In this document: piece after piece, positions 27,640 to 62,184 of the stretch | How positions within the stretch are numbered: position 1 is the stretch's first letter | How the letters are laid out: each line of letters opens with the position of its first letter | From: an uncultured Lentisphaeria bacterium | GTDB lineage: Bacteria; Fidelibacterota; UBA8477; JABMPR01 | DNA: 64,000 bases | Assembly: GCA_964508765.1 (NCBI GenBank) | Contig: CAZDVD010000005.1 | Coordinates: 32,357-96,356 of the forward strand | Direction of reading: 5' to 3' | Made by a program: the position numbers and the translations under genes | The notes under the pieces: generated by a model | What the model was told of the DNA's origin: nothing | Seen by the model: the letters and a program-made list of their open reading frames with translations, nothing else | Databases searched by the model: none

Positions 27640-28650
27640 TTAGGAACAGACCGTCTCCAGCAAAATGGCACAAACTTCATATGGATCCATATTGGCTGAA
27701 GGACGACGATCCTCCAGATAACCCTTGCCCTCTTTTACGGTTTGAAGAGGAATACGAACGGAAGCACCACGATCACTCACACCATAACGGAATTCATGAA
27801 TGGAACAGGTCTCATGGAGACCTGTGAGTCGTTCTTCATTGTGAGCACCATAAACAGCAATATGCTCTTCATGTTTCTCAGAAAGTTTTTTACAGGCTGT
27901 TTCAACCACATCATAACCACCCGTTTCACGCATGGTTTTGGTGCTAAAGTTGGTGTGAGCTCCGGCGCCGTTCCAGTCACCCTTAACCGGTTTTGGATGA
28001 ATACTGGCATTGACACCATATTCTTCAGCGATACGGTAGAGTAACCAACGAGCCATCCAGAGATGATCGCTGCTCTCCAGTGGACCCAGTGGTCCAATTT
28101 GAAACTCCCACTGACCCGGCATGACTTCAGCATTGACACCCGAAATACCAAGACCAGCGCGGAGACAGGCTTCCAGGTGGTCTTCCACGATATCGCGACC
28201 AAAAACTTCATCTGCACCGACGCCACAATAAAAGGGTCCTTGTGGGGCTGGGTAACCGCCATCAGGCCAGCCCAGAGGGGCGCGACCCTGAAAAAATGTG
28301 TACTCCTGTTCGATTCCAAACCAGGATTCTTCAGCTTCGAATTTCTTGGCAACCTCAACAAGATGATCCCTTTTGTTGGATTCGTGAGACTTGCCATCTG
28401 GATAACAAACGGCATTCATTACCAGAATATTGTCTCCACCCCGAATAGGGTCTGAATAAAAAGATACGGGATGCAAAGAACGATCACTATCGTGTCCCAC
28501 TGCCTGCATGGTACTGGAACCATCAAAGCCCCATTCGGGTATTTGATCCAGCGAGGATATGGGTCCATCAATAATTTTTGTTTTAGAACGCAGTTTGGAT
28601 GTGGGGGTGTGCCCATCAATCCAGATATATTCAGCTTTAATCTTTGCCAT
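27640..28650 (-). CDS. glnII: glutamine synthetase, type II (GlnII / eukaryote-like)
   Basis: 336 aa; AEYIWIDG, LRSKT, WFGIEQEY, PQGPFYCGVG, NAEVMPGQWEFQIGP, GDWNGAGAHTNFST, LTGLHET, YLEDRRPSANMDPY. Confidence 0.95.
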   Translation of the reverse strand: MAKIKAEYIWIDGHTPTSKLRSKTKIIDGPISSLDQIPEWGFDGSSTMQAVGHDSDRSLHPVSFYSDPIRGGDNILVMNAVCYPDGKSHESNKRDHLVEVAKKFEAEESWFGIEQEYTFFQGRAPLGWPDGGYPAPQGPFYCGVGADEVFGRDIVEDHLEACLRAGLGISGVNAEVMPGQWEFQIGPLGPLESSDHLWMARWLLYRIAEEYGVNASIHPKPVKGDWNGAGAHTNFSTKTMRETGGYDVVETACKKLSEKHEEHIAVYGAHNEERLTGLHETCSIHEFRYGVSDRGASVRIPLQTVKEGKGYLEDRRPSANMDPYEVCAILLETVCS

Positions 28651-29287: not shown

Positions 29288-29682
29288 ATTCTCCTGAAAT
29301 ATTTTAAGTACGGGGCAATATATCCTAAGAATTTATCGGAATAAGGGAATAAAAGTAACAAACAGCTAAAAATTTCAGCAATTTGGAGACAATACGAGGC
29401 GTGTCCAATAATTTCATGCAGGATATTGCTTATCCTGCTTTGTCTCATCATCTTGGTGCTGAACATCTCCTAGTTCACTGCCTAGAAAATTCGCATAGTT
29501 ATTATTGAGCCAAATACACTAGCACTCAGGAGTTAAGATTATCCGCAGGGTCATGCTTTATCGCTAAGACACCTGCAGAAGTGTCATTGATATGACATTA
29601 GGTTTTCAGCCTCATTCTAAATTACTTCAACAAAAATAAGGGGGTCGGCCTGGATCGACCATATCACTGAATTGGAGATTGT

Positions 29683-30528
29683 ATGAATAATAAAAAAAGT
29701 GCAAGGCGATTGATCATTGTCTTGGTCTTAAGCATAAACCTTTTTGCCTCATTGGCGCTAGGGCAGTATACCGTTGGTCAGACCATTAGTCAGTCTACCA
29801 GGGACAAGGTTGTGAGTTTCTGTGCCAATGATAATGGGAGTAGCAGCCTGGGAAATTTATTGGTACCGGAGCAAGGTGAGGCGACCCGTGTTGTTTGGCT
29901 CAATTTTTTCGAATCGTGGTGAGGCAGCTGCCGTGCGGAGGTTCCGCACCTGGAAAATTTTCACCAGGCAAGAGCCGATGAAGGTCTTTTGATTGTAGCT
30001 CTGGGTAATGATTTTAACTCGCTGAACTGTCAGGCCTGGGCAAACCTGGGTGCTACTTACCCGATTGCTGATGATCGTGGTTCGGGTATCTGGAGTGATT
30101 TTGGCACTGGTGCTATTCCCCGGAACACCATTATTGATACAGATGGCGTGGTCCGATATAATTCCATTGGATATAATGAATCTGCAATCACAGCGGTCCT
30201 AGACGAATTGTTATCCGTTTCTGGAACAGTAGGAGAGGTAGAAACGCCAGAAAGCCACGACCTGATTTTAGTCTTCCCCAATCCATTTAATGGGGAAACA
30301 CAGATTCACTTCGATCTGCCTGATGAGGGATATGTGGCGCTATCGATCTTTGATGGAAAGGGTCGGATCGTGAGACAGTTACTGACTACAGACCTGCCTG
30401 CAGGTTCACATCAGGTCGTCTGGAATACCAGAGATGATGCCGGTGCAGAGCTGCCCAGTGGAGTATATATTGCATCTTTGACCCATGGCACCAGGCAGGA
30501 TTCGAGGAAAGTTCTTCTTCTGAAATAG
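29683..30528 (+). CDS. secreted TlpA/redoxin-family selenoprotein (UGA at 29920-29922 read as Sec) with C-terminal FlgD-Ig/T9SS-like sorting domain, 281 aa
   Basis: The two track ORFs are in one frame: VWLNFFESW-UGA-GSCRAEVPHLE matches the TlpA WCxxC motif; signal peptide; FPNPFN...SGVY...RKVLLLK tail. Confidence 0.85.
29933..29949 (+). promoter_or_regulatory. putative bacterial SECIS element
   Basis: Perfect 7-bp stem GTGCGGA/TCCGCAC with GGT loop, starting 10 nt after the UGA. Confidence 0.75.
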
Positions 30529-30560
30529 GTGTTAGCTATAATCCATTTTATTGTAAAATG

Positions 30561-30595
30561 AAAAGGAGCCCCTGATTTTTAGGGGCTCCTTTTTT
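30561..30595. terminator. bidirectional intrinsic terminator
   Basis: AAAAGGAGCCCCT-GATTTTT-AGGGGCTCCTTTTTT between convergent genes. Confidence 0.9.
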
Positions 30596-30617
30596 GAGAT
30601 AGGTGTACACAACGAGA

Positions 30618-47408: not shown

Positions 47409-50273
47409 CTATTTTAGTAGAATAACTTTTTTCGTTTGTACAATATTGCCAGACTGAATCTGGATCAAATACAATCCCCCCGACAATCCATCCGCATGAA
47501 ATGGAATTTGCCATTGACCTGGTGCGTAGATCTGATTGCAAAGTTGAGAGACAAAGCGTCCCTGGATATCGAAGACATTCAATTCAATATGACCCTGCTC
47601 AGGCAATTCAAAACCAATCTGAGTCGTGCTATTGAATGGCGAGGGGAAAGGATCCAGTAGTCTCACTGATACTGGAAGATTCTGTGTTTCAGAACTCAAG
47701 AGCGTCGATAGATCAAAATAGGATAGGATTGACGTGGTCAATGCCAGTTGTTGATCTTCAATGAAAATGGTTTCAAAAGGAATCCCCAGGAGTACAACCT
47801 GACCTTCACTTGTCCCGTTACCAAAGACTCCAGTATAGGCGGTGGCAGCGATCATGTTGTTGGCATATCTTAAAACCGCTTGAGATCCCCCTGTGGCCTG
47901 GAAAGCGTCAGGATTGTTTTCTTCATATACCCCGTCATTGCCATCATCATATTGCAGAGTTACTCCTTCAAAGACCGACCCCGCCACACCATGAATGGTA
48001 TAGCTGTCAGAATCATCTGAACTATAGATCGCCTTGAGATAGTTATGGAGAAATGATTCATCTCTATCGGTCCCCTGTGATTCTAAGTCGTAAGCAATTT
48101 CTGAACCCGTGGCGAAAATTTTTCCACCCCCTACAAGATAAGCTTCAATGAGATCCTGCTCTTGATCTGAAAACGTTTCGTGGGTCACACTCTCGTCACC
48201 CAGTAGCCAGAATACTGCTGTGTAATCAGTCAGGTTAACGGAGCCCGACAGCACGGCATCATTGTCAGCTGTTTCATAGGAATAGTTGAAATGTCCCAGC
48301 GATTTGGCCATATCAAGTGCAAACTCGTGATAGGGAAAAGGGTAGCTCCCCGTGTTGCGATCAAAGCCATCAACAATGAGTAGACCTTCGGTTGATTCCT
48401 TTTTGGCATGGGCGTAAGCATCTGAGGGATAACTCTCGGTAGGAGGGTCATCATTGCTCACAGAGCGCAATTGCCAGGCCAGTGATAAATCACTTGATGG
48501 AAGCGCAATGGATGTTTGTTGAACAGGCAAAAGACCATTTTCCAGAGCTTCCCACGCTTCTGCCTGGAAAATATCTTTCTGATAAACCTGAACCCCTTGA
48601 ATTCCCGTAGTATCTGCTAGAACCCATGAGATTTGTGTGCTATCAGTGTCAATTACGCTGCTCATCACAGGTTGATCAATGGTGGCCGGCATCCCTTCCA
48701 TGTTAATGTAATAGCGTGGTTGGTAGGCAGCGAGTTGACTGATAGAATAGGATTGATAATGGGTAATCCAACCACCACCAGCTTCCACAGAGAGAATGGT
48801 CCCATTGGTGTTCCACAACACGGCGAGACGAACATGACCGACTTTATGAATAGCATCTCCAGGTCGCAGATCATACCAGGAATCCAGAGGTTGAGTGATG
48901 AGAGGTTGGGTGTTACTCATCATCCAGGTGGAATAATGTTGGGGCATATTCCAGCAGCGCGACACAAAACCGGAGCAGTCCACACCAACGGCATAAGAGC
49001 TGACCTCGGAAGTCTCTATATCTCCTGCATACTTACCATTGGCCAGGCCGGTTACATAACCATCAATTGTGGAGAACCCACCCCATTGGTAAGCCATGCG
49101 TTGATTTTGACCGATCTGTATCCAGGTAGGTGTTTGAATGGCATGTCCAGCAGGATCATCGATGACACCATCGGTAAGATTCTCGGAACCAGCCGTCCAA
49201 ATCAGAGCCACATATTCATCAGCGGTTATGAGAGACTCTTCACGACCCACTGGAGGGAAGTCCAGGCGATCAATTTCTATTGTGCCAGGTTCTTTTTCAT
49301 CAGCATCATTTCCCTGGAGACCTCGGTGATCTCCCCTAAATGGTCTGGGTTGAGTGTTTTGGAATTCTACAGGAAGTGAAAACCTTGTGAGGGAGGATTG
49401 ATCCAGACTGGAAAGATCCCACTTTAATAGATGTAATCCATCATCTCGTGTGAACATGCCAAAGAGAACCCCATCTTTATTTACCTGGAACTCTCGTGTG
49501 ACAGGAACATGTTGAGTTGCTGGAACATCCAGGATTGAAAGTGTTTTTCCCGTTCTGTCAAGTACGTGAACCTCTCGTCGAAGCTGTAAGGGATTCTGCT
49601 CCAGAATGGTTTCCAGCAGGAGGTAGTGATGACCATTGTCACTGGATCCCAGATACTGACCAGAGCCCCAGATACCCCTGGAGGGTTGGAATGATGATAA
49701 CTGGACATCGTTCAGATAGAAAGCCATCCCTGAACTGGATTGTCTCACAAGATGACCATATTCCCCTTGAAGATTGATTGATCCAATCTCAGTGTCTTGG
49801 CCTGATTGATGAGGAATCAAGGTCTCCGATAGACCGAGAGAGATGGCTAGCGTATTTTGGTTTGCCCTTAATAAATGACTGTTAGGTCGCATATTATTGG
49901 TATTTACCCAGACAATTGACTCATTCCCATCGATATATTCATATATTTGCCTGTTATCCATGATGTACTGAAGATCACCTGAAGGGGTTAGTTGAAAGTC
50001 CAGTGCCTGAACTTGGTCAGTTATATACTCAATATTGAGTACTTGCTCTGAATATTTGAGTATTTGCCCAGAGTATGAGGTAAGCAGGTAGGCATTTTTA
50101 CCAATTACCTGGAATGATTCCACACTTTCCCATCCAAAAGGTGTTTCTGTCAATTTGAGCTGCCTATTTCCATCACCCCAGGGAAGGAAAAGTATCTCAG
50201 CGGGGGAGTTAGCAGCGAGGAGTGTCTGAAAGAGTATCTGCAGGAGGAACGTGGTGGTGATGATTTTTTTCAT
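47409..50273 (-). CDS. large secreted protein with NlpC/P60-like domain and C-terminal T9SS-like sorting domain
   Basis: Signal peptide; YQWGG...GVDCSGFVSRCW...PGDAIHKVGHV; FPSPFNS...SGGLY...TKKVILLK. Confidence 0.75.
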   Translation of the reverse strand: MKKIITTTFLLQILFQTLLAANSPAEILFLPWGDGNRQLKLTETPFGWESVESFQVIGKNAYLLTSYSGQILKYSEQVLNIEYITDQVQALDFQLTPSGDLQYIMDNRQIYEYIDGNESIVWVNTNNMRPNSHLLRANQNTLAISLGLSETLIPHQSGQDTEIGSINLQGEYGHLVRQSSSGMAFYLNDVQLSSFQPSRGIWGSGQYLGSSDNGHHYLLLETILEQNPLQLRREVHVLDRTGKTLSILDVPATQHVPVTREFQVNKDGVLFGMFTRDDGLHLLKWDLSSLDQSSLTRFSLPVEFQNTQPRPFRGDHRGLQGNDADEKEPGTIEIDRLDFPPVGREESLITADEYVALIWTAGSENLTDGVIDDPAGHAIQTPTWIQIGQNQRMAYQWGGFSTIDGYVTGLANGKYAGDIETSEVSSYAVGVDCSGFVSRCWNMPQHYSTWMMSNTQPLITQPLDSWYDLRPGDAIHKVGHVRLAVLWNTNGTILSVEAGGGWITHYQSYSISQLAAYQPRYYINMEGMPATIDQPVMSSVIDTDSTQISWVLADTTGIQGVQVYQKDIFQAEAWEALENGLLPVQQTSIALPSSDLSLAWQLRSVSNDDPPTESYPSDAYAHAKKESTEGLLIVDGFDRNTGSYPFPYHEFALDMAKSLGHFNYSYETADNDAVLSGSVNLTDYTAVFWLLGDESVTHETFSDQEQDLIEAYLVGGGKIFATGSEIAYDLESQGTDRDESFLHNYLKAIYSSDDSDSYTIHGVAGSVFEGVTLQYDDGNDGVYEENNPDAFQATGGSQAVLRYANNMIAATAYTGVFGNGTSEGQVVLLGIPFETIFIEDQQLALTTSILSYFDLSTLLSSETQNLPVSVRLLDPFPSPFNSTTQIGFELPEQGHIELNVFDIQGRFVSQLCNQIYAPGQWQIPFHADGLSGGLYLIQIQSGNIVQTKKVILLK

Positions 50274-50285: not shown

Positions 50286-52565
50286 TCAATTCAGATCCAT
50301 TTCTTCCAATATTTGCTGCGGTTTGACGGGCAGGTGCTTGATGCGAACGCCTACCGCATTATAGATAGCATTGGTTACAGCAGGTGCCGGAGCATTAATG
50401 GGAATCTCAGCCACGGCTTTGGCACCATATGGACCCGTAGGTTCGTGAGATTCTGCAAAACGAACAACCAGTTCAGGCATATCATTTGATGTGTAAATAT
50501 GATAGCTGTTAAAATCCAGATTCGTGAATCGACCCTTATCATCAAAAGGCATAAATTCTGAAAGCGCCATACCCAAAGCCTGAGGTATGGCACCCTCCAC
50601 TTGGCCTTCTGCCATTTTGGGATTGATGATCTGACCGATATCTGTCACAGACACAACCTTGATAACGCGTACTGTCCCTGTGAGTGTGTCCACTTCAACC
50701 TCTGCAAAGCTTGCATTAAAAGGTGGTGGTGAATCATAACTTAAATGAGAAGCGGACCCCATGATCTGGGTTTGTTCCTCGGTGTAAAATGATTTGATAC
50801 AGATATCTGAGAATGATATGGTTTGTCCGTCTGAGCCAACAACCTGGGTATCGATGATTTTTGCATCCTCAATTTGAAGCAGTTTCTTGCCCTGTTCCAG
50901 AATCATAGCTTTGCATGTTTCGGCGGCTTTCTTCACTGCAGTGCCTGAAATATAGGTAGTACTTGAGGCATAGGCTCCCGTGTCAAATGGGGTCATGTCT
51001 GTATCCGAGGAGTAAACGATGATTTTGTCCACAGAAACATTGAGAACTTCAGCTGCAATTTGAGCCAAGGCTGTATCAGATCCTGTCCCCAGATCAGTAG
51101 CACCGATCTGTAAATTAAAACTGGCGTCCTCATTCATTTTAATAAAAGCTGCGCCCATGTCGATACCAGGAATTCCAGAACCCTGTCCGGCAACTGCAAC
51201 CCCAATGCCTCTTCTGAAACGCCCGCTTTGTTCGGCCGATCTAAGTGCATCCCAATTGCTGAGTACCCGACCTTCATTCAGGCAGGCTGCAATCTCAATA
51301 CTATAAAGAACCATGGGGAAGCCTTCTCTACCTTCACCCAAAATCTTGGCTATGGGAACATCATCTCCGACTTTGAAAACATTCTTTAAGCGCAAATCGA
51401 CGGGATCAACACCCAATTCTACAGCCACTTCATCCATGAGACTTTCGAGAGGGAAAAAGGCTTGTGGTGCACCATAGCCACGGTAGGCTCCACCAATGGG
51501 TAAATTTGTATATACAGCATCTCCATTCGCTCGAATATTGGGTGCCTTATACATGCTTAAGGCCTTTTGGGAAGTAACTGACATGACCGTTAATGCGTGT
51601 GGTCCATAAGCACCACAGTCCTCAAGGATGTTGATATCGATGGCCGTGAGGAGATGATTTTCATCAAACCCAAGTCGAATTTTCAGTTGTTCCGGATGTC
51701 GTACACGAGCAGCATAAAGTTCCTCTTCCCGAGTGTATTCAATCCGCGCGGGTCGACCGGTTTTTAAAGTTACTGCGCCAACAATTTCTTCATTAAGAAT
51801 CTCTTGTTTACCACCAAACGCCCCTCCAACTCGAGGTTTGATTACACGGATACGACCGACAGGAATATCCAACACTTCTGCAACAATTCGACGGACATGA
51901 TGAGGTACTTGAGTCGAAGTCCTAATCACCAGACGATTATTATCATCCAGCCAGGTGAGAGAGATATGCGGTTCGATATGAGCCATTTGAACAAAGGGCG
52001 TGCTATAAGTCCCCTCAAAAGCGTGGGCAGAGTCTGCCAAAGCTGCCTCCACATCACCTATTTCCGCATCAAGATGGGCGGCAATGTTTTTTTCAACATC
52101 ATGGATTCCACTGGTGCCCTCAGCCGGATGTATGGCAAATCCTGCTGTCATGGATTGTTGAGCATCAAAAATACAGGGAAGTTCTTCATACTCTACATCA
52201 ATGAGATTAATTGCTTGCTCTGCAATTTCAAGGCTCTCAGCTGCTATAAAAGCTACCCGATCTCCAACAAAACGGACGGTTTGGTCCAGGATGCGCATAT
52301 CACGAGGTCCCGGTTCAGGATACCCTTGTCCCGCTGTGGTATAGTAATGTGGTTTGAAATCTTTATGCGTGAAAACCGAGACAACGCCCTCAAGCGCCTC
52401 TGCCTTCGATACATCGATACTGAGGATATTTGCATGAGCAATTGGGCTGTGTAGAATCTTGACATACAGGACATCTTTCAGCTTCATGTCATCGGTAAAA
52501 ACAGGTTTGCCCCTGACCAGAGCCTGGCCATCTACGCGTTGAGTGTCTTTTCCAATCACTTTCAT
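50286..52565 (-). CDS. xanthine dehydrogenase family molybdopterin-binding subunit (XdhD-like)
   Basis: STQVPH, VGGAFGGK, AYRGYGAPQ, DLGTGS, GQVEGA, GPYGAKAVAE. Confidence 0.93.
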   Translation of the reverse strand: MKVIGKDTQRVDGQALVRGKPVFTDDMKLKDVLYVKILHSPIAHANILSIDVSKAEALEGVVSVFTHKDFKPHYYTTAGQGYPEPGPRDMRILDQTVRFVGDRVAFIAAESLEIAEQAINLIDVEYEELPCIFDAQQSMTAGFAIHPAEGTSGIHDVEKNIAAHLDAEIGDVEAALADSAHAFEGTYSTPFVQMAHIEPHISLTWLDDNNRLVIRTSTQVPHHVRRIVAEVLDIPVGRIRVIKPRVGGAFGGKQEILNEEIVGAVTLKTGRPARIEYTREEELYAARVRHPEQLKIRLGFDENHLLTAIDINILEDCGAYGPHALTVMSVTSQKALSMYKAPNIRANGDAVYTNLPIGGAYRGYGAPQAFFPLESLMDEVAVELGVDPVDLRLKNVFKVGDDVPIAKILGEGREGFPMVLYSIEIAACLNEGRVLSNWDALRSAEQSGRFRRGIGVAVAGQGSGIPGIDMGAAFIKMNEDASFNLQIGATDLGTGSDTALAQIAAEVLNVSVDKIIVYSSDTDMTPFDTGAYASSTTYISGTAVKKAAETCKAMILEQGKKLLQIEDAKIIDTQVVGSDGQTISFSDICIKSFYTEEQTQIMGSASHLSYDSPPPFNASFAEVEVDTLTGTVRVIKVVSVTDIGQIINPKMAEGQVEGAIPQALGMALSEFMPFDDKGRFTNLDFNSYHIYTSNDMPELVVRFAESHEPTGPYGAKAVAEIPINAPAPAVTNAIYNAVGVRIKHLPVKPQQILEEMDLN

Positions 52566-53038
52566 GATTTACCTCCAGCGTTTCGGGAAGCTTTGAGGGT
52601 AGAGAGAGCAGCTTTTACTGGTTTTACATAGCCGGTACAACGGCAAAGGTTTCCATTTAAAGCGTCTCGAACCTGTGCCTCATCAATTTCGGCACCTTCC
52701 CTGTCCAAGGCTTCAAGAGATAGAATCATCCCAGGAGTACAGAAACCACACTGCGCTGCCCCCTCTTTTAAGAAGCTTTTCTGGAGGGGATGTAGCTTTT
52801 CATGAGTAGAAAAACTCTCAAGCGTCTCAATCTTTCGTCCACTTACTGTATGCATGAGGATCAGACAGGCGTTCATACTTTTGCTGTCCACGAGGACAGC
52901 ACAGGCACCACATTCGCCGTGGTCACAGCCATGTTTCACACTGTAAAGCTCCTCTCCACGCAAATATTCCATCAATGTGGTCCCAGGAGCATGGGTAGCC
53001 TCAACAAGATGACCATTTAATTCAAATTGGACTTTCAT
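52562..53038 (-). CDS. xanthine dehydrogenase family 2Fe-2S subunit
   Basis: GCDHGECGAC, QCGFCTPG, GNLCRCTGY; start 53038 by ATGA overlap. Confidence 0.93.
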   Translation of the reverse strand: MKVQFELNGHLVEATHAPGTTLMEYLRGEELYSVKHGCDHGECGACAVLVDSKSMNACLILMHTVSGRKIETLESFSTHEKLHPLQKSFLKEGAAQCGFCTPGMILSLEALDREGAEIDEAQVRDALNGNLCRCTGYVKPVKAALSTLKASRNAGGKS

Positions 53039-53769
53039 TTCACACCTGCCATTTCCTGTAAAAGAGTACAAGCCAGATGACGTTTATAGGCTGGAGTCCC
53101 GAGGTGATCATCGCTAAAACTAGATTCAACTTTATCCATAAATTTTCGGACTTTAGCTTCATCAGGTTCTGGCTTGGTTTCAAAGAATAGGATTCGTGAA
53201 CTCTTACCGCCAACACATACAGAAATGGTATCCTTCATTTCATTGATCCCAACGAGAACGTAGGCTGGTGCTGAATCAAGCAGAGCAACCCGCTCCAGTT
53301 TTACCGCATGCCTGGGGATGATGATTTTGATAATGATTCCTTCACCATTCCAGTCAGACAACTCAATGGGGTTTTTAGAATCGCTTAGGAGTAATTTCGT
53401 TCTTGAAGTGAATAAGAAAATCAGGAGATCAGAATCAGTCCTGGATCTGGCCATTTCTCCACCAATGGTGCGTTGGTTGCGGATATTCTTGGAGGGACAA
53501 GAGGCCTGAATGGCGCTGGTGAGACGTTCATCATTGAAATGAATCATCTCCTGCAAGGTGCAGCCTGCATCAATGTGGATGTCTTCACCATGGGTCTCGA
53601 TCTTATCATTTATAAGATGATTAATATCAAGAAGGGTGCTGATATCATTATCCTTTTGAGCGACCAGATAACTTCCCCCAGCAAAAAGTACAGAGCCTTT
53701 TTCCTTGAGCAGCAAGGATGCTTCACTCAGGGTGTCAGGTTTGATAATTTGTTCAATTGAAGACCACAT
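53035..53769 (-). CDS. molybdenum hydroxylase FAD-binding subunit (YgfM-like)
   Basis: FAGGSYL, IRNQRTIGG, DDHLGTPAYKR. Confidence 0.8.
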   Translation of the reverse strand: MWSSIEQIIKPDTLSEASLLLKEKGSVLFAGGSYLVAQKDNDISTLLDINHLINDKIETHGEDIHIDAGCTLQEMIHFNDERLTSAIQASCPSKNIRNQRTIGGEMARSRTDSDLLIFLFTSRTKLLLSDSKNPIELSDWNGEGIIIKIIIPRHAVKLERVALLDSAPAYVLVGINEMKDTISVCVGGKSSRILFFETKPEPDEAKVRKFMDKVESSFSDDHLGTPAYKRHLACTLLQEMAGVK

Positions 53770-53781
53770 AATTTGACCTAT

Positions 53782-55182
53782 TTATTTATTGATTGATTGA
53801 AAATTTAGTTTGGTGCGTTGCTCAGCTCTTTCAAGCATTTTTGCAGCAAGCCTGTTGTGTTCTGCTATGAGCATAGATTCATCTATTTCTGAATTGCCCT
53901 GCTCCAGAACCACCTTACCCTGAACGATCAGGTAGTCTACAGGTTGATGTCGTGTCGTAAAGATAAGTGCTGCGACTGGATCTGATAGACTTCCTGCCTG
54001 GGCTGGGGCATTCATGTTGAATATAGCCAGATCAGCCTGTTTCCCCACACTGAGTTGTCCAATATCATCACGACCCAGGGCCGCGGCTCCTCCACGGGTA
54101 GCCATTCGCAAAACATCTCTGGCGGTAAGCCAATAATCTTGTTCCCTTAATCGGGAGATAAGCATAGCATTGCGCATCTCCAGGAGCATATCCCCTGAAT
54201 CATTTGAGGCACTGCCATCAACTCCCAGGCTCACATTAACGTTTGCATCAAGGAGTTCTCGAATTCGGGCAATTCCTGATCCCAACCGCATATTCGATGA
54301 CGGACAATGAGATATGCCAACTTGATTTTCACCCATTAACCTGATTTCGGCGTCGTTCACATGTATGGAATGAGCATACCAGGAATTTGGAGTGAGCCAA
54401 TTCAACTCCTGCATGAGGCCAACGGGACGAAAGCCAAAGCTCTCCAGGCAGAAGGCTTCCTCATCCAGTGTTTCAGCGAGGTGAGTATGGATTTGGAGAC
54501 CATTTGCTATGGCATATTCTGCGGTTTGCTTCATCAGCTCTGGCGTTACGGAGAAGGGCGAGCAGGGAGCAAGAGAAATACGGATCATGGATCCATGGGA
54601 TTCGTCATGATATTTTGCCAGCAGACGCTCCGTGTCTTTTTGAATGACGTCTTCGGTCTGGACCACATCATCAGGAGGTAGGCCACCTTTTGATTTGCCC
54701 AGCGACATGGAACCCCGTGTGGGCTGGAATCGAACGCCCAGAGCTTTGGCAGCCTCGATTTCTGTGTCGATCAATTCGGGACTGGCCTTGGATGGGAAGA
54801 GATATAGGTGATCAGTACTGGTAGTCACACCGCTCTTCATCAATTCCAGGAGACCCGTTTGGGTGCTCACGGCAACGGCCTCAGTGGTGAGCTCTCGCCA
54901 GACTTCATAGTGATTGGTCAGCCAGGAGAAAAGCGGTTGATCCTGCATGAGAGGGATATTGCGAGTCAGGGTTTGATATAGGTGATGGTGGGTGTTGATG
55001 AATCCAGGAGTGATGACCATATTCGTGGCATCAATTGTCCGGTCAGCTTGAATATCCAGTGATTCGGGACCAATAGATTTAATGACACCATTTTCTATGA
55101 AGATATGACCACCGGAAAATTCATCACCAGCATCATTCATTGTGGCAACCCGGAGGGGGTTTTTGATTAGGAGTGTTGACAT
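53782..55182 (-). CDS. 8-oxoguanine deaminase-like amidohydrolase
   Basis: PGFINTHHHLYQTLTR, APCSPFSVT, HTHLAETLDE, HCPSSNMRLGSG, LGVDGSASND. Confidence 0.88.
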   Translation of the reverse strand: MSTLLIKNPLRVATMNDAGDEFSGGHIFIENGVIKSIGPESLDIQADRTIDATNMVITPGFINTHHHLYQTLTRNIPLMQDQPLFSWLTNHYEVWRELTTEAVAVSTQTGLLELMKSGVTTSTDHLYLFPSKASPELIDTEIEAAKALGVRFQPTRGSMSLGKSKGGLPPDDVVQTEDVIQKDTERLLAKYHDESHGSMIRISLAPCSPFSVTPELMKQTAEYAIANGLQIHTHLAETLDEEAFCLESFGFRPVGLMQELNWLTPNSWYAHSIHVNDAEIRLMGENQVGISHCPSSNMRLGSGIARIRELLDANVNVSLGVDGSASNDSGDMLLEMRNAMLISRLREQDYWLTARDVLRMATRGGAAALGRDDIGQLSVGKQADLAIFNMNAPAQAGSLSDPVAALIFTTRHQPVDYLIVQGKVVLEQGNSEIDESMLIAEHNRLAAKMLERAEQRTKLNFQSINK

Positions 55183-55188
55183 GAATTA

Positions 55189-58100
55189 TTATCGCTTTTC
55201 CAAAATTGGGTTCGTACTCAAGTTTTCGTACAATACAATCATCGTGAGAGCATCGTTCGTGTTGATACTATCTTCAGACTCCAGATTTGCTGATATTATT
55301 CTTTTTGTCTCCCCGTTGAAAAGAATCTGTCCTTCAATCGATTCAAATAGATAATCATTTGCTTGGACACTCAACTTGCGATGAATCTTCTCATCCTTAT
55401 ATCGTATACCTTCGTTATCTATGATATAGCCAAAGCTGGAATCATTGTAACTCTGCTCAGAGAGGTGTAGCCTGGGTTTATCCTTGTAAGGGTCCCCAGC
55501 AGTGGGGCAGAAGGTGGTACAGTTTCCGCATTCGTTACAGAAGTCCCCAATGTTGAGCACCTGAGGTTCCTGCTTGATGTCCAATCGGCCTGTCACCTTT
55601 AATTCTGGTTTACCATTGACCATTTTCACATCATGAATATCGTAGGACACTGGTTTTACTATGTAAGTCAGATTAGCCAGATTGGGGCAAACCCCCACAC
55701 AGACGCTGCAGTAATCATCACAGAGTAAACATCTTGAGGCTTCTGCAATGGCTTCTTCGTGGGTAAGCGTTCGATGGGCTTCAGGAAACTCCTGTGAAGC
55801 ATCCGGCACAGCCAGGGGAGGATTGATGCCATACTCTCGCAGGGCTGCTTTTTTCTTTAAATCATCAATAGAAATGAGACGAGGGCTGTTTTCTGGTGGA
55901 GTAATCAAACTCGGGATACGCTTGAGAATATGTTTGGCTGCCTTCTGTCCATCTCTAATGGCATTTATGACGCTGGAGGCTCCCCGCACGGCATCGCCGC
56001 CAGCATAAACATGAGGAATAGTTGTTGTACAGGTCTCATAATCCACCTGTAGATCATCCTGGTCAACAAAATCAACACTGATGGTCTGTCCAATGGCTGG
56101 AATCACGGTATCCACGGTGAAATCGAGATACTCACCATTAAGTGGTACTGGTCGGCGGCGACCGCTGGCATCTGGCTCACCCAATTCCATTTTCTGACAA
56201 TGAATCTGTTTTACTTGACCATTTCCCATAAATTTTAATGGAGTTACCAGTTCGTGGAAGGTGATGCCCTCAGCCAGCGCAGCTTCGATTTCATCAATAT
56301 CTGCTGGCATCTCGGACGTGGTCCGCCGATAAATAACGTTTACCTTTGCTAACTCACCTGCCAATCGAAGTGCCGTGCGGGCCGCATCCATGGCCGTGTT
56401 ACCACCCCCGATGATAGCAATGTTCTGACCCAGGTTGGGACGCGCTCCCATTCTGACATCTGCGAGAAATTCTAGCGGATTTAGAATACCAGAGAGCGTT
56501 TCACCTGCGACCCCAAGCAGCAATGCCCTTTGAGCTCCGACACCGATGAAGATATCATCATTTGATTCTTGGATTTGTTTATAGAGTTCGGGACCTACAG
56601 GGCTATCAAAAAGAAATTTGACTCCGAGATTTTTCAACACATCGATATCAAAATTGATGGTTTCGTCACTTAATCTGAATTCAGGAATGGCTCCTGAGAC
56701 CATGCCTCCCACAAAAGATTTACTCTCATACACCTCAACTTTGACACCTTGTCGCGCCAGGAAATAAGCGCAGGAGAGTCCTGCAGGACCGGCACCAATT
56801 ACTGCCACTCTGTGCTTAATGTTCTCAATATCAGACGCTTTGATTTTGGCGATCTCCTGCTCAGTTACAAAGCGTTTGATTTCACGAATCAAGAGGGGTG
56901 AATCATAATTATTTCGAGTGCATTTTAGTTGACATAAATGATCACAGACATTACCGGTCACTCCAGGGAGGGGATTGGTATCCTGAATGGCTTCAAAAGC
57001 CTTATCAAAATTACCCTGAGAAGTGTGGTAGAGATATTCAGGGATGTTTTGATCTGCAGCACAGGCATCCACACAAGGAGCTGATATGCAATCGAAAGCT
57101 CCAAGACTTCGCTTGGTTTTAATGGAATCAAAATGGTGGCTATGCTTGTGATAGTGAGGATTATGAATGACTTGCTGAGCATAATTCTGCAGCGTGTCTA
57201 AACCAGCCTGGTCGATATCCTGAGCATCATGCTTCCCCAGAATGAACTGATTCAGACTCTTGGATTCAGTCTCATCCATAGCTTGTTTTAAATTGTCCAG
57301 GTATTGGCCCAATCGCGTATAACCACCAGGTTTCAACACATCAGTACAGGTGGTTACAGGACGGAGATTACATCTCAGAATATCAGCCACATTGAAAGCA
57401 TCTGCCCCTGCAGAAAAGGAAATATCTAGCTTTCTATTAAAGTCCTTTTGCAGCTTGGCAGCCAGATTGATGCTAATAGGGTGGAGAGCCCGGCCACTGA
57501 GATACATCATGGTTTCATTCTCAGGAAAAACGGATCGGTGGTTTTGCACTTCCAGCGTGTTGGTCAACTTTAGACCAAAATCAACACCCACTTCATCCGC
57601 ATGAGCTTGTAGGTTGTTAATGAGGTTCAGAGCATCTGGATACTTTAAATCGTGGTCAAAGGCCTCATCAGGAACAATAGATGCTTCATAGCCCAGATCT
57701 TGATTTAGGATTTGCCGAAGTTGTTCAGGACCCAACAGGGTAGGGTTCAATTTAACAGCTGTATGATATTTTCGTTCTTTGATGAGGTAAGTCGCGATTC
57801 GCTCGATCTCATCTGGGGGACATCCATGCATGGTGGATAGGGTGATATTGTTTGTCATTCGTGCGGGAATGTCCAAATTTTTTATGTTGGGATAAATAGA
57901 CTCAATCAGATTCAATTTTTCATTAAGCAAACCCTGGCTGTTTTCCATGCCGTCCATGAAATGCTGGACATTGGGCTTCATGATACCTTCAAGATCATAG
58001 CCCACACTCATATTGAAAATCACACCTGCGCCCTGATCTGAATTCCATCCGAGATGGTCTTTCAAAACATGAATAGCTATCCAGGCATTGAGATATTCAT

Positions 58101-58461
58101 CCAGGGATTGCTTCAGCTTGAGCTCCTGAGACCATTCACAGTTATAACCTTCATCCTGCATATCAATACAGGGTTTGCTGACCTCAAGTTCATCCAGAGT
58201 TTGAACCGTCTTGAGTTCCATGTAGCGGGCACCACACAACCAGGCAGCAATGATGTTCTGGGAAAGTTGAGTGTGTGGACCAGCAGCTACACCAATGGGT
58301 GTTTCCAGCAATTGGTCATAACGCTGCATGCGAAAGGGATCAGAAATATCAGGCGTGAAGAATAAATCCTTATGTATCCCAAAGAGCTGATCGCTTTTGA
58401 GTTCGGTCAACATCCACTGGATTAGATGCTGAATGGAAACAGGATAGAATCGGTCATTCAT
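55189..58461 (-). CDS. ygfK: YgfK-like Fe-S flavoprotein oxidoreductase
   Basis: PIGVAAGPHTQLSQNI, DEGYNCEWSQEL, FGLKLTNT, GAGPAGL, GGGNTAMD, CNECGNCTTFCP. Confidence 0.9.
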   Translation of the reverse strand: MNDRFYPVSIQHLIQWMLTELKSDQLFGIHKDLFFTPDISDPFRMQRYDQLLETPIGVAAGPHTQLSQNIIAAWLCGARYMELKTVQTLDELEVSKPCIDMQDEGYNCEWSQELKLKQSLDEYLNAWIAIHVLKDHLGWNSDQGAGVIFNMSVGYDLEGIMKPNVQHFMDGMENSQGLLNEKLNLIESIYPNIKNLDIPARMTNNITLSTMHGCPPDEIERIATYLIKERKYHTAVKLNPTLLGPEQLRQILNQDLGYEASIVPDEAFDHDLKYPDALNLINNLQAHADEVGVDFGLKLTNTLEVQNHRSVFPENETMMYLSGRALHPISINLAAKLQKDFNRKLDISFSAGADAFNVADILRCNLRPVTTCTDVLKPGGYTRLGQYLDNLKQAMDETESKSLNQFILGKHDAQDIDQAGLDTLQNYAQQVIHNPHYHKHSHHFDSIKTKRSLGAFDCISAPCVDACAADQNIPEYLYHTSQGNFDKAFEAIQDTNPLPGVTGNVCDHLCQLKCTRNNYDSPLLIREIKRFVTEQEIAKIKASDIENIKHRVAVIGAGPAGLSCAYFLARQGVKVEVYESKSFVGGMVSGAIPEFRLSDETINFDIDVLKNLGVKFLFDSPVGPELYKQIQESNDDIFIGVGAQRALLLGVAGETLSGILNPLEFLADVRMGARPNLGQNIAIIGGGNTAMDAARTALRLAGELAKVNVIYRRTTSEMPADIDEIEAALAEGITFHELVTPLKFMGNGQVKQIHCQKMELGEPDASGRRRPVPLNGEYLDFTVDTVIPAIGQTISVDFVDQDDLQVDYETCTTTIPHVYAGGDAVRGASSVINAIRDGQKAAKHILKRIPSLITPPENSPRLISIDDLKKKAALREYGINPPLAVPDASQEFPEAHRTLTHEEAIAEASRCLLCDDYCSVCVGVCPNLANLTYIVKPVSYDIHDVKMVNGKPELKVTGRLDIKQEPQVLNIGDFCNECGNCTTFCPTAGDPYKDKPRLHLSEQSYNDSSFGYIIDNEGIRYKDEKIHRKLSVQANDYLFESIEGQILFNGETKRIISANLESEDSINTNDALTMIVLYENLSTNPILEKR

Positions 58462-58469
58462 GCGAAAAG

Positions 58470-59021
58470 TTAATCCTGATAACCATGATTGTGTTTATCA
58501 GAAGCCCACATCAGCAGGTTTTGATCAATATAGTTTCGAACATTATCCAATTCTTTCTCGGTTCGAATAATTCGATCATGAAATCTGGATTGCCAGATAG
58601 AGACACCAGGTGTTTGGCGAAGGATGTTTATGCTTTTAGTTGTAGCGGATTTATATGCTCCCACAATAGTAGATATCGAGCCCGGGATCGGTTTGCCAAA
58701 TTTTTGTTTGGATTGTTTTGGAGCGGCGGGGCGCGCCCCGCCGGTACCAGGAGGAATAATTATTATTCCGTGCAAATGATTTGGCATCACGACAAACCGA
58801 TCAGAAACAATATTTTCCCTGATTTCAAAAGTTTTATGCCATTCAAATTCTGCGATTCTACCAAAATCGTTTAATTCCATAATACCTTTCCTGATGTCGC
58901 CAAACAGCAGATACCTCTTTGCGGTGCAAATGGTAACAAAATAAATACCCTCGCTTGAGTAATCCCAGCCCTCAAGACGTCTTGAGCCACGTATAAATCT
59001 GTCATAGTAAGAGGCATTCAT
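58470..59021 (-). mobile_element. REP-associated tyrosine transposase (RAYT / TnpA-REP, Y1 HUH family)
   Basis: YFVTICT, VVMPNHLHGII (HUH), WQSRFHDRIIR, YIDQN. Confidence 0.9.
58720..58747. repeat. REP palindrome inside the RAYT coding sequence
   Basis: Perfect 20-bp palindrome CGGCGGGGCGCGCCCCGCCG (58724-58743) flanked by GGAG/GTAC. Confidence 0.75.
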
Positions 59022-59839
59022 CTCATCAAAAATTCCATCACCAAATTCACAATAACCCGCTTTCGATAGACAGCAGTAGCTCTGATATCATCTATAGGTG
59101 AAATATCTGCCTCAATCAGCAAGGGCCAGTCTTCAGGCCGGCTGGTTTTATCCAGAATGGTACTGGTTAATTTATCAAGGGTGACAACGGTTGGAGCCAC
59201 CGCTCCACAGGCTATTCTCAGGTGTTGAAAATCCTCACCCCTCTTAGAATATACAAAAGCTAGATTTACTACAGATATAGCCATGGATTGACGTAAACCA
59301 ACTTTCTGAAATGTGGAATTGAAGTGTTGACGTTTCAAGGTAACGGAGACTAAAATCTCACTGGGCTGTAAAGCGGTCTTACCTGGTCCCAGGATGAAAT
59401 CTTGAATGGGAGTTTGTCGTTCACCATCAGGTCCGATCAATGTGAGTGTTGCTTCGAATGCGTAGAGTGCGGGTAACAGATCCCCTGCTGGAGAAGCATT
59501 GACGATGTTTCCTCCAATGGTTCCCCGATGACGAATTTGAGCTCCTGCGAAATCATGAGCTGCCATGTGCAAAGCAGTAAATTCAGACTGGATCAACTGA
59601 TTCTCCTGAATAACCTGAATGCTGGTTAGAGCGCCAATCTGTATTGAATCCTCTTTGATACTTATGTGGTACAGATCAGACAGCTTTTTGAGATCGATGA
59701 GATGATCTGGCATCGGTTTTCCGCGTTCGTAACGAGGCATCAAATCCGTTCCACCTGCCAGCAGGGTTGCGGTCTGATCTGAAAGGCTCGAACTCAGTTC
59801 AATAAATTCTCGGATGGATGTGGGTTGATAAAATTGCAT
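59018..59839 (-). CDS. xanthine dehydrogenase family FAD-binding subunit
   Basis: LLAGGTDL, QIRHRGTIGGNIVNASPAGD, GAVAPT, SPIDDIRATAVYR. Confidence 0.93.
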   Translation of the reverse strand: MQFYQPTSIREFIELSSSLSDQTATLLAGGTDLMPRYERGKPMPDHLIDLKKLSDLYHISIKEDSIQIGALTSIQVIQENQLIQSEFTALHMAAHDFAGAQIRHRGTIGGNIVNASPAGDLLPALYAFEATLTLIGPDGERQTPIQDFILGPGKTALQPSEILVSVTLKRQHFNSTFQKVGLRQSMAISVVNLAFVYSKRGEDFQHLRIACGAVAPTVVTLDKLTSTILDKTSRPEDWPLLIEADISPIDDIRATAVYRKRVIVNLVMEFLMR

Positions 59840-59841
59840 AA

Positions 59842-60258
59842 TTAATTTGCCGCTGAATCACGCGGTTCTACACGGATCCTTTTTCTAGAATTTTCAAAAA
59901 CAAACCGCTTAAAGCTTGGCTTCTGACCAAAATTTATCAACAAACCAACCTCAATATCCGTTGCCTTTAAATAGTTCAGTAGTTGAGCTTCATGCACCGG
60001 GCTGAGTGTTTTAACGGCTTTAAGTTCTAGAATTACTTTGTTGTTTATTACCAAATCAGCTCGAAACAAACCAAGGCTTTGTCCGCGAAAGAAGACGGGT
60101 ATCTCCTTCTGGCATTCAACCATCAAACCAAAATCTTTCAGGACGATTGCCAAGGCTGACTCATAGACTGATTCTAAAAATCCAGAGCCCAACTCATTGT
60201 AAACCTCATAAAAGGCTTTGATTATTTTTTCAGTTATTTCGCTATGCTTTAATTTCAT
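59842..60258 (-). CDS. GxxExxY protein (PD-(D/E)xK nuclease-like)
   Basis: LGSGFLESVYE, FRADL, ILELKAV, HEAQLLNYLKAT, GLLINFG. Confidence 0.93.
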   Translation of the reverse strand: MKLKHSEITEKIIKAFYEVYNELGSGFLESVYESALAIVLKDFGLMVECQKEIPVFFRGQSLGLFRADLVINNKVILELKAVKTLSPVHEAQLLNYLKATDIEVGLLINFGQKPSFKRFVFENSRKRIRVEPRDSAAN

Positions 60259-60289
60259 TTATCCGTGCTCATCAGCGTTTATCGGCGGC
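59849..60289. mobile_element. putative GxxExxY cassette bounded by 29-bp phased inverted repeats
   Basis: Arms 59849-59877 and 60261-60289, 20/29 identity as reverse complements, three ATCnGYG-like units at 10-bp period. Confidence 0.6.
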
Positions 60290-60757
60290 CCCCTCTATCG
60301 CATCCACAATTTTGTGATAGCCAGTACAGCGACAGATGTTCCCAGACAACTCGTATTTGATTTCATCCCGTGTGGGATGAGGGTTGCGCTCCAACAGTTT
60401 TTCCCCGGTGAGAACCATGCCTGGAATGCAATAACCACACTGGACAGCATGGTGGTCTTCGAAAGATTTTTGCATAGCAGTGAGTTCCTGGGTATCAGCC
60501 AGACCCTCAATAGTAATGACATAGCCACCATGAGTTTCCACAGCCAAAATGAGACATGAATTCACAGTCTGCCCATTTAGAATGACCGTGCAGGCTCCAC
60601 ATTCGCCTTCACCGCAGACCTCTTTAGTACCGGTGAGTCTCAGGTCATCTCTTAAGAAATCCAGAAGTCTTAAGTGAGTAGGAACTTCTCGCTGAATCAG
60701 TTCACCATTAATGGTGACTTCGAGTTTGAAAGTATGGGGTTTGTGATGATGTAACAT
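60272..60757 (-). CDS. xanthine dehydrogenase family 2Fe-2S subunit
   Basis: TGTKEVCGEGECGAC, QCGYCIPG, GNICRCTGY. Confidence 0.93.
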   Translation of the reverse strand: MLHHHKPHTFKLEVTINGELIQREVPTHLRLLDFLRDDLRLTGTKEVCGEGECGACTVILNGQTVNSCLILAVETHGGYVITIEGLADTQELTAMQKSFEDHHAVQCGYCIPGMVLTGEKLLERNPHPTRDEIKYELSGNICRCTGYHKIVDAIEGAADKR

Positions 60758-60759
60758 GT

Positions 60760-62001
60760 TTAATCCCGGGAATTATCCAGATAGGTTTCCATATCCGCTA
60801 GCGTTGCGTTAACTGCTTCCACAGGCCTGAGAAGTTTCTGAGCATTTTCTGTATCTTTGAGTCCAGATCCTGTGATGAGCACAACGATGTGATCACTGCC
60901 TTTAAATAGTCCTGAATCGGATGCTTGCAAGAAACCGGCATAGGCTGCCGCTGCAGCAGGTTCGGCAAAAATTCCAGTTGTTTCAGAGAGGTGCTTTTGA
61001 GCTTTCAGAATATTGGCATCACTTACTTTGAAACCCCTGCCACCGCTTTCAATAATGGCTCGCCTGGCCTTGCCGCCATCGCGGGGTTGGTCCACACTGA
61101 TACTGTCGGCAATGGTATTCGCTTTTACCGCCTGGATCTTCCCTTCATGTGAAAGACTGTCAACGATGGCTGCTGAACCCTGGGCTTGAACCCCATGTAT
61201 GGCAGGCATAAAATCAATCCATTTGAGCGAGAGTAGATCGAAGAAGCCTTTATATACACCTGAGATGATGCAGCCATCACCCACGGGAACGAATATATGA
61301 TCCGGAACTTTCCAGTTGTTTTCCTCAGCTATTTCCAGGGCAACGGTCTTCTTCCCCTCAGCCAGAATGGGGTTTATGCCAGTATTGCGGCAATAACTCT
61401 GATGCTTTTGGGCCCACTCAAAAGCCAGATCAAAGGCGGTATCGTAATTGGCATTCACTGGAACCAGTTGAGCACCATGCTGGAGGATTTGAGTCAGTTT
61501 TGCCGGAGGGGCCGTGGCCGGGGCAAGGATGATGCTCTTTATCCCATGATAAGCAGAAAGGGCTGCCAGAGAAGAGCCTGCATTCCCAGTAGAAGCAGCA
61601 ATAATCGTATCTTGACCTTGCTCTACAGCATGTTGTATTGCCAGCTCACTGGCTCTATCCTTTAATGACCCTGAAGGGTTGCGAGTGTCATCTTTGATTT
61701 GAAAACGGGTGAGCCCATGCTCGCTTGCGATTCTGGGAAACTCCACCATTGGAGTTCCACCGACTCGCAAAGATTTGTTTTCAGGAGCTGCCTTCACCGG
61801 GAGAATGGGAAGGTAACGCCACATGGAAGCATCATGGTCCTTATTCAAAGATAAGGGTCCACAGGTAGCAGCTATTTTGTTGTAGTCATATACAAAATCA
61901 AGATTCTGGCCGCATTTTGGACAGGTATATGAGAACGGATCAGCTGGTACCATCCACTTGCACTGGAAACATTGTAAACCAAGAATCGCTTCAGAAATCA
62001 A
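60760..62001 (-). CDS. threonine synthase-like PLP enzyme with N-terminal Zn ribbon
   Basis: CFQC...CPKC, NPSGSLKDR, ASTGNAG, EGKKT, VPVGDG, ITGSGLKD. Confidence 0.85.
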   Translation of the reverse strand: MISEAILGLQCFQCKWMVPADPFSYTCPKCGQNLDFVYDYNKIAATCGPLSLNKDHDASMWRYLPILPVKAAPENKSLRVGGTPMVEFPRIASEHGLTRFQIKDDTRNPSGSLKDRASELAIQHAVEQGQDTIIAASTGNAGSSLAALSAYHGIKSIILAPATAPPAKLTQILQHGAQLVPVNANYDTAFDLAFEWAQKHQSYCRNTGINPILAEGKKTVALEIAEENNWKVPDHIFVPVGDGCIISGVYKGFFDLLSLKWIDFMPAIHGVQAQGSAAIVDSLSHEGKIQAVKANTIADSISVDQPRDGGKARRAIIESGGRGFKVSDANILKAQKHLSETTGIFAEPAAAAAYAGFLQASDSGLFKGSDHIVVLITGSGLKDTENAQKLLRPVEAVNATLADMETYLDNSRD

Positions 62002-62159: not shown

Positions 62160-62184
62160 GTATTCACATATAAGTAAACAACGC

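Follow-up and report, generated by a model that had tools for sequence, protein, structure and literature searches.

Does a TGA at the codon for the attacking cysteine of a thioredoxin (Trx)-fold protein end that protein, or does it encode selenocysteine (Sec)? The question is raised by a gene in a 64,000-nucleotide stretch of DNA (the window; positions 32,357 to 96,356 of contig CAZDVD010000005.1, assembly GCA_964508765.1) that was deposited under the name of an uncultured Lentisphaeria bacterium and whose host is a Marinimicrobia (SAR406 / FCB-group) bacterium. A sequence-only reading of the window had proposed that two predicted open reading frames (ORFs) are one frame interrupted by TGA alone, and its coordinates and strings were all correct. 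The plus-strand frame runs from 29683 to 30528, is broken solely by the TGA at 29920-29922, and ends with the TAG at 30526-30528. The first ORF (29683-29922) supplies 79 codons before the TGA; the read-through product has 281 residues and, with TGA written as U, contains the peptide LNFFESW-U-GSCRAEVPHL. We put the probability at about 0.88 that the gene is real and Sec-decoded and that its product is an exported, TlpA-like oxidoreductase with a tail of the type IX secretion system (T9SS) type, a judgment that comes from comparing sequences. That the gene is a genuine selenoprotein gene, and a misannotated one, appears nearly certain. Actual export across the outer membrane is probable, and for disulfide-reductase chemistry the odds are about even.

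Conservation of the in-frame TGA

To characterize the gene among relatives, we searched 41 genomes (its own and 40 others) with the read-through protein. Of the 22 same-genus genomes, 16 have a full-length orthologue, as does one of two genomes from other genera of the family. All 17 have TGA in the same column, within the motif [W/Y]-U-[G/S]-x-C, and each contains exactly one TGA in a frame that is otherwise open. Protein identity ranges from 81% down to 42% in the resulting alignment (A1), where C47, S78, U80, C83, E86, C116, P146, and the tail motifs are invariant, so that invariant residues stand on both sides of the TGA. Counted back from the U, 15 of 18 loci have an ATG 79 codons earlier, in most cases after a GGAG. 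Elsewhere TGA acts as an ordinary stop: it ends 10 of the 38 long frames in the window, and many window ORFs match family profiles over their full length under translation table 11. Contigs from metagenome runs X2 (records 5-7) and X4 (record 12) are identical over 29920-29922 and differ elsewhere; because they keep the TGA, it can be neither a sequencing error nor a private nonsense mutation. The contigs of X2, X3, and X4 have gaps, one of them in X3 over 29906-29939, and nothing was concluded from these. The sequence-only reading had left room for reads carrying TGC or TGT at this site. TGA is instead what is kept in the contigs of these two other samples and in 17 independent assemblies. 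Comparison thus shows UGA-80 to behave as a conserved sense codon at the predicted attacking-Cys site of TlpA/ResA-type enzymes.

The same position was followed across the phylum with the N-terminal 185 residues, which matched 136 of 401 genomes at E <= 1e-12. Among the first 100 matches listed, a hand count gave 75 with one TGA, 23 with none, one with TAG, and one with two TGAs. We then examined 32 loci, 12 of them returned by the search and 20 picked because they were flagged as having one TGA, so that the resulting ratio of U to C is biased: of 42 Trx-domain homologues, 35 have U and 7 have C in the residue-80 column. The Cys forms are more distant homologues, are 275-280 amino acids (aa) long, and share the same architecture of signal peptide, Trx fold, and T9SS tail.

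Selenocysteine insertion hairpin

Immediately downstream of the TGA, a perfect 7-bp stem with a GGU loop had been described, and every part of that description, including the distances of 10 and 17 nt, agrees with the sequence. GTGCGGA (29933-29939), GGT (29940-29942), and TCCGCAC (29943-29949) follow one another, with the hairpin starting 10 nt and the loop 17 nt after the A of the TGA. The arrangement had been likened to a bacterial selenocysteine insertion sequence (SECIS), and rightly so by our analysis: selection acts on a stem-loop that lies directly 3' of the UGA and has a small apical loop containing G.

The evidence for this selection is comparative. We aligned 52 Sec-bearing relatives in register (alignment A3) and compared them with 500 column shuffles. 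The helix was 92.2% paired (75.4 +/- 1.6 in shuffled alignments), there were 63 compensatory cells (24.7 +/- 4.3), and the covariation score was 0.443 (0.153); for each of the three measures, none of the 500 shuffles was as high. Four of the seven pairs change on both sides, and when the partner was slid by 1-3 columns as a control, no more than 53.5% of positions paired. The 5' arms vary (GUGCGGA, GUGUGGA, AAUCGGA, AGGCGGA, GGGUGGA, and UCCGGA, among others) around one inner core, and the loops found across relatives are GGU, GGC, GAU, and GUU. In the orthologue from another genus (L035), the hairpin is shifted 4 nt downstream; its 7-bp stem is also perfect but unrelated in sequence, and its loop is GUC. 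In-register pairs averaged 6.2 in Sec forms (n = 53) and numbered 0-2 in Cys forms (n = 7) despite similar peptides; because the sequences are kin, these pairing figures overstate independence. Among 16 same-genus sequences, codons 84-89 (R84-H89) had the most uniform synonymous usage of the gene (0.98 versus a gene mean of 0.62; rank 1 of 215 six-codon windows). A search for homologues with Cys or UGA in this column had been proposed as a check, and what we found is TGA or Cys at position 80, and a hairpin that is both conserved and covarying. For the predicted SECIS, then, the comparative evidence is decisive, unlike the fold of the single sequence.

The hairpin also resembles one elsewhere in the same genome. 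The SECIS of selD consists of UGA, 13 nt, a 7-bp stem, and a GGA loop, which is the same format. A strict genome-wide pattern (TGA, 8-16 nt, 7-bp stem, and a loop starting with GG) returned 14 matches among 151,447 TGA trinucleotides. Six of these lie in open frames, and three of the six are selD, the 281-residue gene, and a 220-aa peroxiredoxin (Prx)-like U-x-x-C gene. The other three open-frame matches (C25:20793, C31:4960, and C86:2492) have translations that are not protein-like and were taken as chance. A lower stem, UGGUGA/UCACCA (29923-29975), forms in most single-sequence folds. It is broken in two orthologues (L031 and L033) and overlaps the conserved W-U and H-Q codons, of which it may be a by-product, and we do not propose it as part of the SECIS.

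Selenocysteine machinery

If UGA-80 is decoded as Sec, the genome should encode the means of doing so. It contains tRNA-Sec (69.3 bits, gathering score 47; ARAGORN reads the anticodon as tca), selA (514 bits), and selB (344 bits), the latter two above their curated cut-offs. It also contains selD (364 bits, above the curated cut-off), with an in-frame TGA of its own. The sel genes that the sequence-only reading had proposed looking for are thus all in the genome. The selD gene (C2:149717-150778, minus strand, locus L015) is itself a selenoprotein gene, with the motif A-A-G-U-A-G-K. Outside the window, a second split Trx-fold selenoprotein (C8:1258-1917, minus strand, locus L119) is 220 aa long and has a signal-like N-terminal segment. 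It matches AhpC/TSA with 90.8 bits, its in-frame TGA lies in G-G-W-U-P-Y-C, and its SECIS consists of UGA, 14 nt, a 7-bp stem, and a GGC loop.

Fold and proposed chemistry

The read-through protein matches Pfam Redoxin (PF08534) over residues 67-166 with 57.1 bits (cut-off 26.6; E = 2.4e-15). Further Pfam matches are AhpC-TSA (40.4 bits), Thioredoxin_8, and, over residues 197-277, FlgD_ig and Por_Secre_tail. When the Protein Data Bank (PDB) was searched with a profile built from A1, the best match quoted was the ResA-like structure 4nmu (2.4e-14), and DipZ, DsbE/CcmG, and ResA were found as well. In the alignment with 4nmu, U80 and C83 fall on the two active-site cysteines, E86 on a Glu, and P146 on the conserved Pro. 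The TGA had been placed at the attacking-Cys position of a Trx fold, and U80 indeed falls on the leading Cys of the ResA-like motif. An AlphaFold2 model computed from the 17 sequences contains a signal helix (residues 4-23, at low confidence), an N-terminal beta-hairpin, a Trx fold at residues 70-177, a linker, and a six-strand beta-sandwich at residues 206-280. Foldseek placed DipZ C-terminal domains first, followed by ResA/DsbE-like chains, with template modeling scores of 0.77-0.80 normalized to the target.

By its sequence and modeled fold, the protein belongs to the TlpA/ResA/CcmG-like branch of the Trx superfamily. It is neither ResA nor DsbE proper, nor a member of two curated Trx-like selenoprotein families: with NF041054 (WAxxUGC_long), whose cut-off is 300 bits, it scored 22.8, and NF045500 (GOS_C) was not among the 16 NCBIfam families listed at E <= 0.01. 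The reductase-type branch (ResA/CcmG/TlpA) is suggested by the invariant Glu86, three residues after the resolving Cys, and by the invariant, cis-Pro-type P146. A DsbD-type membrane reductase is present in the genome (171.9 bits).

Predicted signal peptide, sorting tail, and proposed export

The N terminus has the n, h, and c regions of a predicted signal peptide by inspection, and the sequence A-x-G/A followed by Q-Y is conserved in A1. At the other end, the protein scores above cut-off with both TIGR04183 (T9SS type A sorting domain; 32.5 bits versus 23) and PF18962 (Por_Secre_tail; 29.6 bits versus 27). Three tail motifs are invariant in A1, namely P-N-P-F-N, S-G-x-Y, and the K-x-L-L-x-K end. 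The predicted signal peptide, the Trx fold, and the FlgD-Ig/T9SS-like tail that had been read from the letters stand at the level of sequence, profile, and model. In the genome, PorU (693 bits; cut-off 420) and SprA (730 bits summed; cut-off 200) are present, and the query has 64 further matches, almost all of them to its tail region; at least 60 other proteins of the genome carry this kind of tail. One tail (C48), flagged as having one TGA, was considered as a selenoprotein and rejected, the TGA being its stop codon. These features are best read as export by a type IX-like route; a surface or extracellular location, like the reaction that the enzyme would catalyze, is inferred.

The residue after the predicted cut, Gln28 (29764-29766), is Q in at least 90% of the 17 orthologues and also in those paralogue starts that were read; in the orthologue from another genus, the Gln column is aligned one residue off. 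The A-x-G/A-then-Q pattern resembles the "Q-rule" of Bacteroidetes, which gives an N-terminal pyroglutamate. According to the accessible text of one source (PMC5837995), the Q-rule does not hold across the whole FCB group.

Combining these elements, we propose the following course of events. SelB-GTP-Sec-tRNA(Sec) would bind the hairpin on the translating mRNA, and Sec would be inserted at UGA-80. The preprotein would cross the inner membrane through the Sec translocon, and a cut after A-L-G27 would expose Gln28. After folding in the periplasm, the type A C-terminal domain would direct the protein to a type IX system, whose SprA translocon, PorV-like shuttle, and PorU sortase all have homologues in the genome. 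This system would move the protein over the outer membrane, remove the tail, and either anchor the protein to the surface or release it. The U80 selenolate may attack a disulfide or another oxidized sulfur or selenium center in an extracytoplasmic substrate, and Cys83 would resolve the mixed selenenyl-sulfide.

Alternative readings

It is possible that UGA-80 is not decoded as Sec at all, being read instead by a near-cognate route as Trp or Cys, or being a true stop that leaves two products or a pseudogene. This would agree with the two ORFs that gene callers report, but we regard it as very improbable. A stop inside the redox motif would split the Trx fold, TGA persists in 17 of 17 orthologues to 42% identity with both flanks strongly conserved, and the hairpin tracks TGA, not Cys, in a genome with full Sec machinery. 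Nor is there a conserved downstream start, since homologous fragments in the databases begin at inconsistent positions. A separate possibility accepts Sec and disputes the chemistry. The protein could be a Prx-like peroxidase or oxidant scavenger with Sec as the peroxidatic residue, rather than a protein-disulfide oxidoreductase. AhpC-TSA does match, and it is the top Trx-type family for most of the paralogues described below; peroxiredoxins occur further down the Foldseek list; and the accessible text of PMC2398784 files marine pfam08534 U-x-x-C proteins as "Prx-like 3." However, W-U-x-x-C stands at the start of helix 1 with Glu at +3, the best sequence and structure matches are of the ResA/DsbE/TlpA type, and the T-x-x-U/C register that the accessible part of a 2026 review gives for the Sec-containing Prx family (PMC13188914) is not seen in the window protein. 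We consider a peroxidase function unlikely.

Slightly better odds, though still long ones, belong to the proposal that the same selenoprotein stays in the periplasm as a DsbD-fed reductase like CcmG, ResA, or TlpA, its beta-sandwich serving as a binding or scaffold module and not as a secretion signal. Its nearest relatives among solved structures are reductases of the periplasm or the membrane side, the genome encodes a DsbD-type protein, GldM and GldK were not found in it with curated models, and DipZ pairs a Trx domain with a beta-sandwich without being secreted. Yet the tail passes the T9SS type A cut-off and keeps the invariant motifs of its family, PorU and SprA are present, and dozens of the genome's proteins share the tail. 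Moreover, the paralogues bear modules of extracellular type, including FG-GAP propellers, TSP_3, and LVIVD.

Several results weigh against our preferred reading of an exported Sec-containing oxidoreductase. Some concern the hairpin. Its single-sequence fold was not significant (z = -1.39 and -1.35, with 20 and 19 of 200 shuffles as good). Within the genus, covariation amounted to one compensatory pair (C-G to U-A in L020), a level reached by 81 of 500 shuffles, although this comparison is nearly uninformative because the helix is almost invariant there. Rfam, searched at E up to 10 over 29600-30600, gave no match at the hairpin and only subthreshold small-RNA matches on the terminator. Others concern the sampling: 6 of the 22 same-genus genomes (63-95% complete) gave tail matches alone with this query, and the sequences compared are kin rather than independent samples. 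As for the enzyme, the NCBIfam models for ResA (NF002854; 55.2 versus 170 bits) and DsbE (TIGR00385; 43.9 versus 123.15 bits) stayed far below cut-off, the AlphaFold2 model has a mean predicted local distance difference test score of 70.8, with values below 50 at residues 180-204 and at the active site (78-85), and an enzyme on the surface would be without an obvious electron donor. Finally, the type IX machinery is only partly demonstrated, because the PorV-like barrel is below cut-off (138 + 66 versus 250 bits), GldK is a weak partial match (69 versus 350 bits), and a GldM profile search of the genome (92% complete) gave no match, with a control that gave no match anywhere either.

Public records and earlier reports

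Gene callers had been expected to split such a gene, and public records bear this out. We found 28 database homologues (E <= 0.001), each covering at most 70% of the query and all of them post-TGA fragments. All but one (27 of 28) are related beyond the tail; these are 154-197 aa long. In the seven fragments that were read, the starts differ, with three at window residues 85, 90, and 103. The records are named [quoted passage not shown] (FCB group bacterium in one case) or "hypothetical protein." Because the homologues are truncated at the Sec codon and vaguely named, a redox enzyme of an abundant marine phylum is invisible in metabolic reconstructions.

Selenoproteins of the U-x-x-C kind are already known. 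TlpA, Redoxin, and Prx-like examples with a Trx fold were predicted from Sargasso Sea and Global Ocean Sampling (GOS) data (accessible text of PMC1088965 and PMC2398784). The 2026 review, as far as its text is accessible, lists U-x-x-C Trx-fold selenoproteins of these types and contains no occurrence of T9SS, sorting, secret, or periplasm (PMC13188914). Two papers that mention both selenoproteins and Marinimicrobia or SAR406 do not describe this protein in their accessible parts (PMC8318568 and PMC5029168). We found no literature linking selenocysteine to type IX secretion in a search that lay outside supplements, including the GOS sequence sets; those sets might contain fragments of the family. 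The apparent T9SS-cargo architecture and the phylum-wide, multidomain paralogues were not found in print.

Wider paralogue family

The representatives of the paralogue clades all join a Trx(U) module with Por_Secre_tail. The pair occurs alone (~280 aa), with TSP_3 (495-539 aa), with FG-GAP beta-propellers (788-793 aa), or behind LVIVD and DUF1573 (629 aa). The U-x-x-C Trx module, with its own coevolving SECIS, is thus joined to the T9SS tail in at least four forms, and Cys and Sec paralogues are often adjacent. Specifically, the Cys forms and one Sec form (L104) lie directly 3' of a larger, T9SS-tailed Sec paralogue (loci L066-L071, L074, and L104). This upstream LVIVD/DUF1573 paralogue has its Sec in G/A-W-U-P-V-C-A-P-E-F-S-D and a hairpin of UCCGGA / GUU / UUCGGA. 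In an unrooted maximum-likelihood tree of 59 Trx domains, three Sec clades stand apart and the Cys forms group together with 79% support; the distribution of Sec and Cys needs one change of state. We make no claim about the direction of that change, because the tree is unrooted and the branch support is 79%. Tentatively, and at less than even odds, the Marinimicrobia (Fidelibacterota) may carry a set of selenium redox enzymes that the type IX system exports to the cell surface or the surrounding water.

Genomic context

The selenoprotein gene stands alone. An AsnC-type regulator and GlnII lie upstream and are divergent, and nagB and a DUF4954 gene lie downstream and are convergent. Of the 17 orthologue loci, 16 have GlnII and AsnC and 11 have NagB alongside the gene; such conservation is unremarkable within a genus and offers no hint of function. 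The selenoprotein evolves faster than its flanks, since the flanking genes are 79-96% identical versus 42-81% for the selenoprotein. Downstream of the gene, a terminator-like hairpin (30560-30594) folds with -25.7 kcal/mol (z = -6.42; 0 of 200 shuffles equal by direct folding); it is absent from the list returned by a consensus terminator scan. The features of the gene are collected in Table 1.

Table 1. Positions in the window of the selenoprotein gene and its elements
Feature	Position	Strand	Basis or remark
Shine-Dalgarno-like GGAG	29674..29677	+	5 nt ahead of ATG; read directly
Whole selenoprotein gene	29683..30528	+	281 codons + TAG, one in-frame TGA; 17 orthologues open on both sides
Predicted signal peptide, residues 1-27	29683..29763	+	K/R-rich start, hydrophobic core, A-L-G then Q; by sequence inspection
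Trx-fold (TlpA/ResA/Redoxin-like) domain, residues 67-166	29881..30180	+	Pfam, PDB profile, Foldseek
TGA, read as Sec codon U80	29920..29922	+	First position of the U-G-S-C redox motif
TGC, resolving Cys83	29929..29931	+	Invariant in alignment A1 (17 orthologues)
Predicted SECIS hairpin	29933..29949	+	7-bp stem, GGT loop, 10 nt after TGA
T9SS type A C-terminal sorting domain (beta-sandwich), residues 197-281	30271..30525	+	TIGR04183, PF18962
Intrinsic-terminator-like hairpin and T run	30560..30600	+	Between the convergent selenoprotein gene and nagB

Elsewhere in the window, a molybdenum hydroxylase cluster had been noted, and one of the xanthine-dehydrogenase type is present at 50286-63648 on the minus strand. 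Its members are a MoCoBD subunit (759 aa), two FAD_binding_5 proteins, an amidohydrolase, a 1090-aa protein with Fer4_20 and Pyr_redox_2, and two PALP enzymes. The case for Sec no longer needs any selenium use by this cluster. Next to it, at 47409-50273 (minus strand), a 954-aa ORF has no Pfam match at 1e-8 and carries the same T9SS-type tail at its end (C5:79768-80037). The plus strand from 77 to 21862 holds long series of genes for amino-acid biosynthesis: leuB, leuA, leuC, leuD, cimA, ilvE, an aspartate kinase gene, thrB, and thrC, and then hisG, hisD, hisC, hisB, hisA, hisF, and hisIE. Past the his genes are asnB, two ABC exporters, and a eukaryote-like GlnII glutamine synthetase (27640-28650, minus strand).

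Implications

The usual picture of bacterial selenoproteins places them chiefly in the cytoplasm or the periplasm. A family that appears built for outer-membrane export raises the questions of how a selenol enzyme stays reduced outside the cell and of what it targets. If its members do act beyond the outer membrane, they would provide the first demonstration of a bacterial selenoprotein as T9SS cargo. This would also point to selenol chemistry outside the cell, in low-oxygen seawater and salt lakes, with organic sulfur (particulate or dissolved), protein disulfides, or polysulfides as its targets. The selenium demand of SAR406-type bacteria in oxygen-minimum zones may exceed what current selenoproteome counts suggest. 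Furthermore, the family offers a natural experiment in SECIS evolution, with the same peptide (Q/R-A-E-V/A-P) encoded with a hairpin in the Sec forms and without one in the Cys forms.

Comparison with known systems

The marine U-x-x-C selenoproteins predicted earlier are similar in having a TlpA/Redoxin-type fold, Sec for the first Cys of C-x-x-C, and a small, G-containing SECIS loop downstream, as well as a marine origin and many Cys homologues. In contrast to the window protein, they were defined mostly from short reads, and the accessible text of their sources mentions no T9SS tail, signal peptide, or secretion. With the T9SS type A cargo of Bacteroidota, the window protein shares a tail above the TIGR04183 and PF18962 cut-offs, a predicted beta-sandwich, and a genome that encodes PorU and SprA. 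It differs in that its host belongs to the Marinimicrobia, where the motor and ring components GldK/L/M/N are not demonstrated.

The enzymatic likeness is to ResA, CcmG (DsbE), and TlpA (4nmu, 1su9, 3gl3, and 2b1k), which have the same fold and active-site register, the Glu three residues past the resolving Cys, a cis-Pro-type loop, and an N-terminal beta-hairpin extension. Unlike these proteins, the window protein has Sec in place of Cys, a predicted cleavable signal peptide in place of a membrane anchor, and a T9SS tail, and no cytochrome c maturation genes were seen around its gene.

Two further proteins share a part of the proposed arrangement. Etrx1 of Streptococcus pneumoniae is lipid-anchored, and DipZ of Mycobacterium tuberculosis is fused to a membrane electron-transfer domain. 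Etrx1 (4hqs) is a Trx-fold lipoprotein that is surface exposed according to its PDB title, and DipZ (2hyx and 5cyy), the top Foldseek match, has a Trx domain followed by a beta-sandwich. Where the window protein is predicted to use Sec, however, both of these proteins use Cys.

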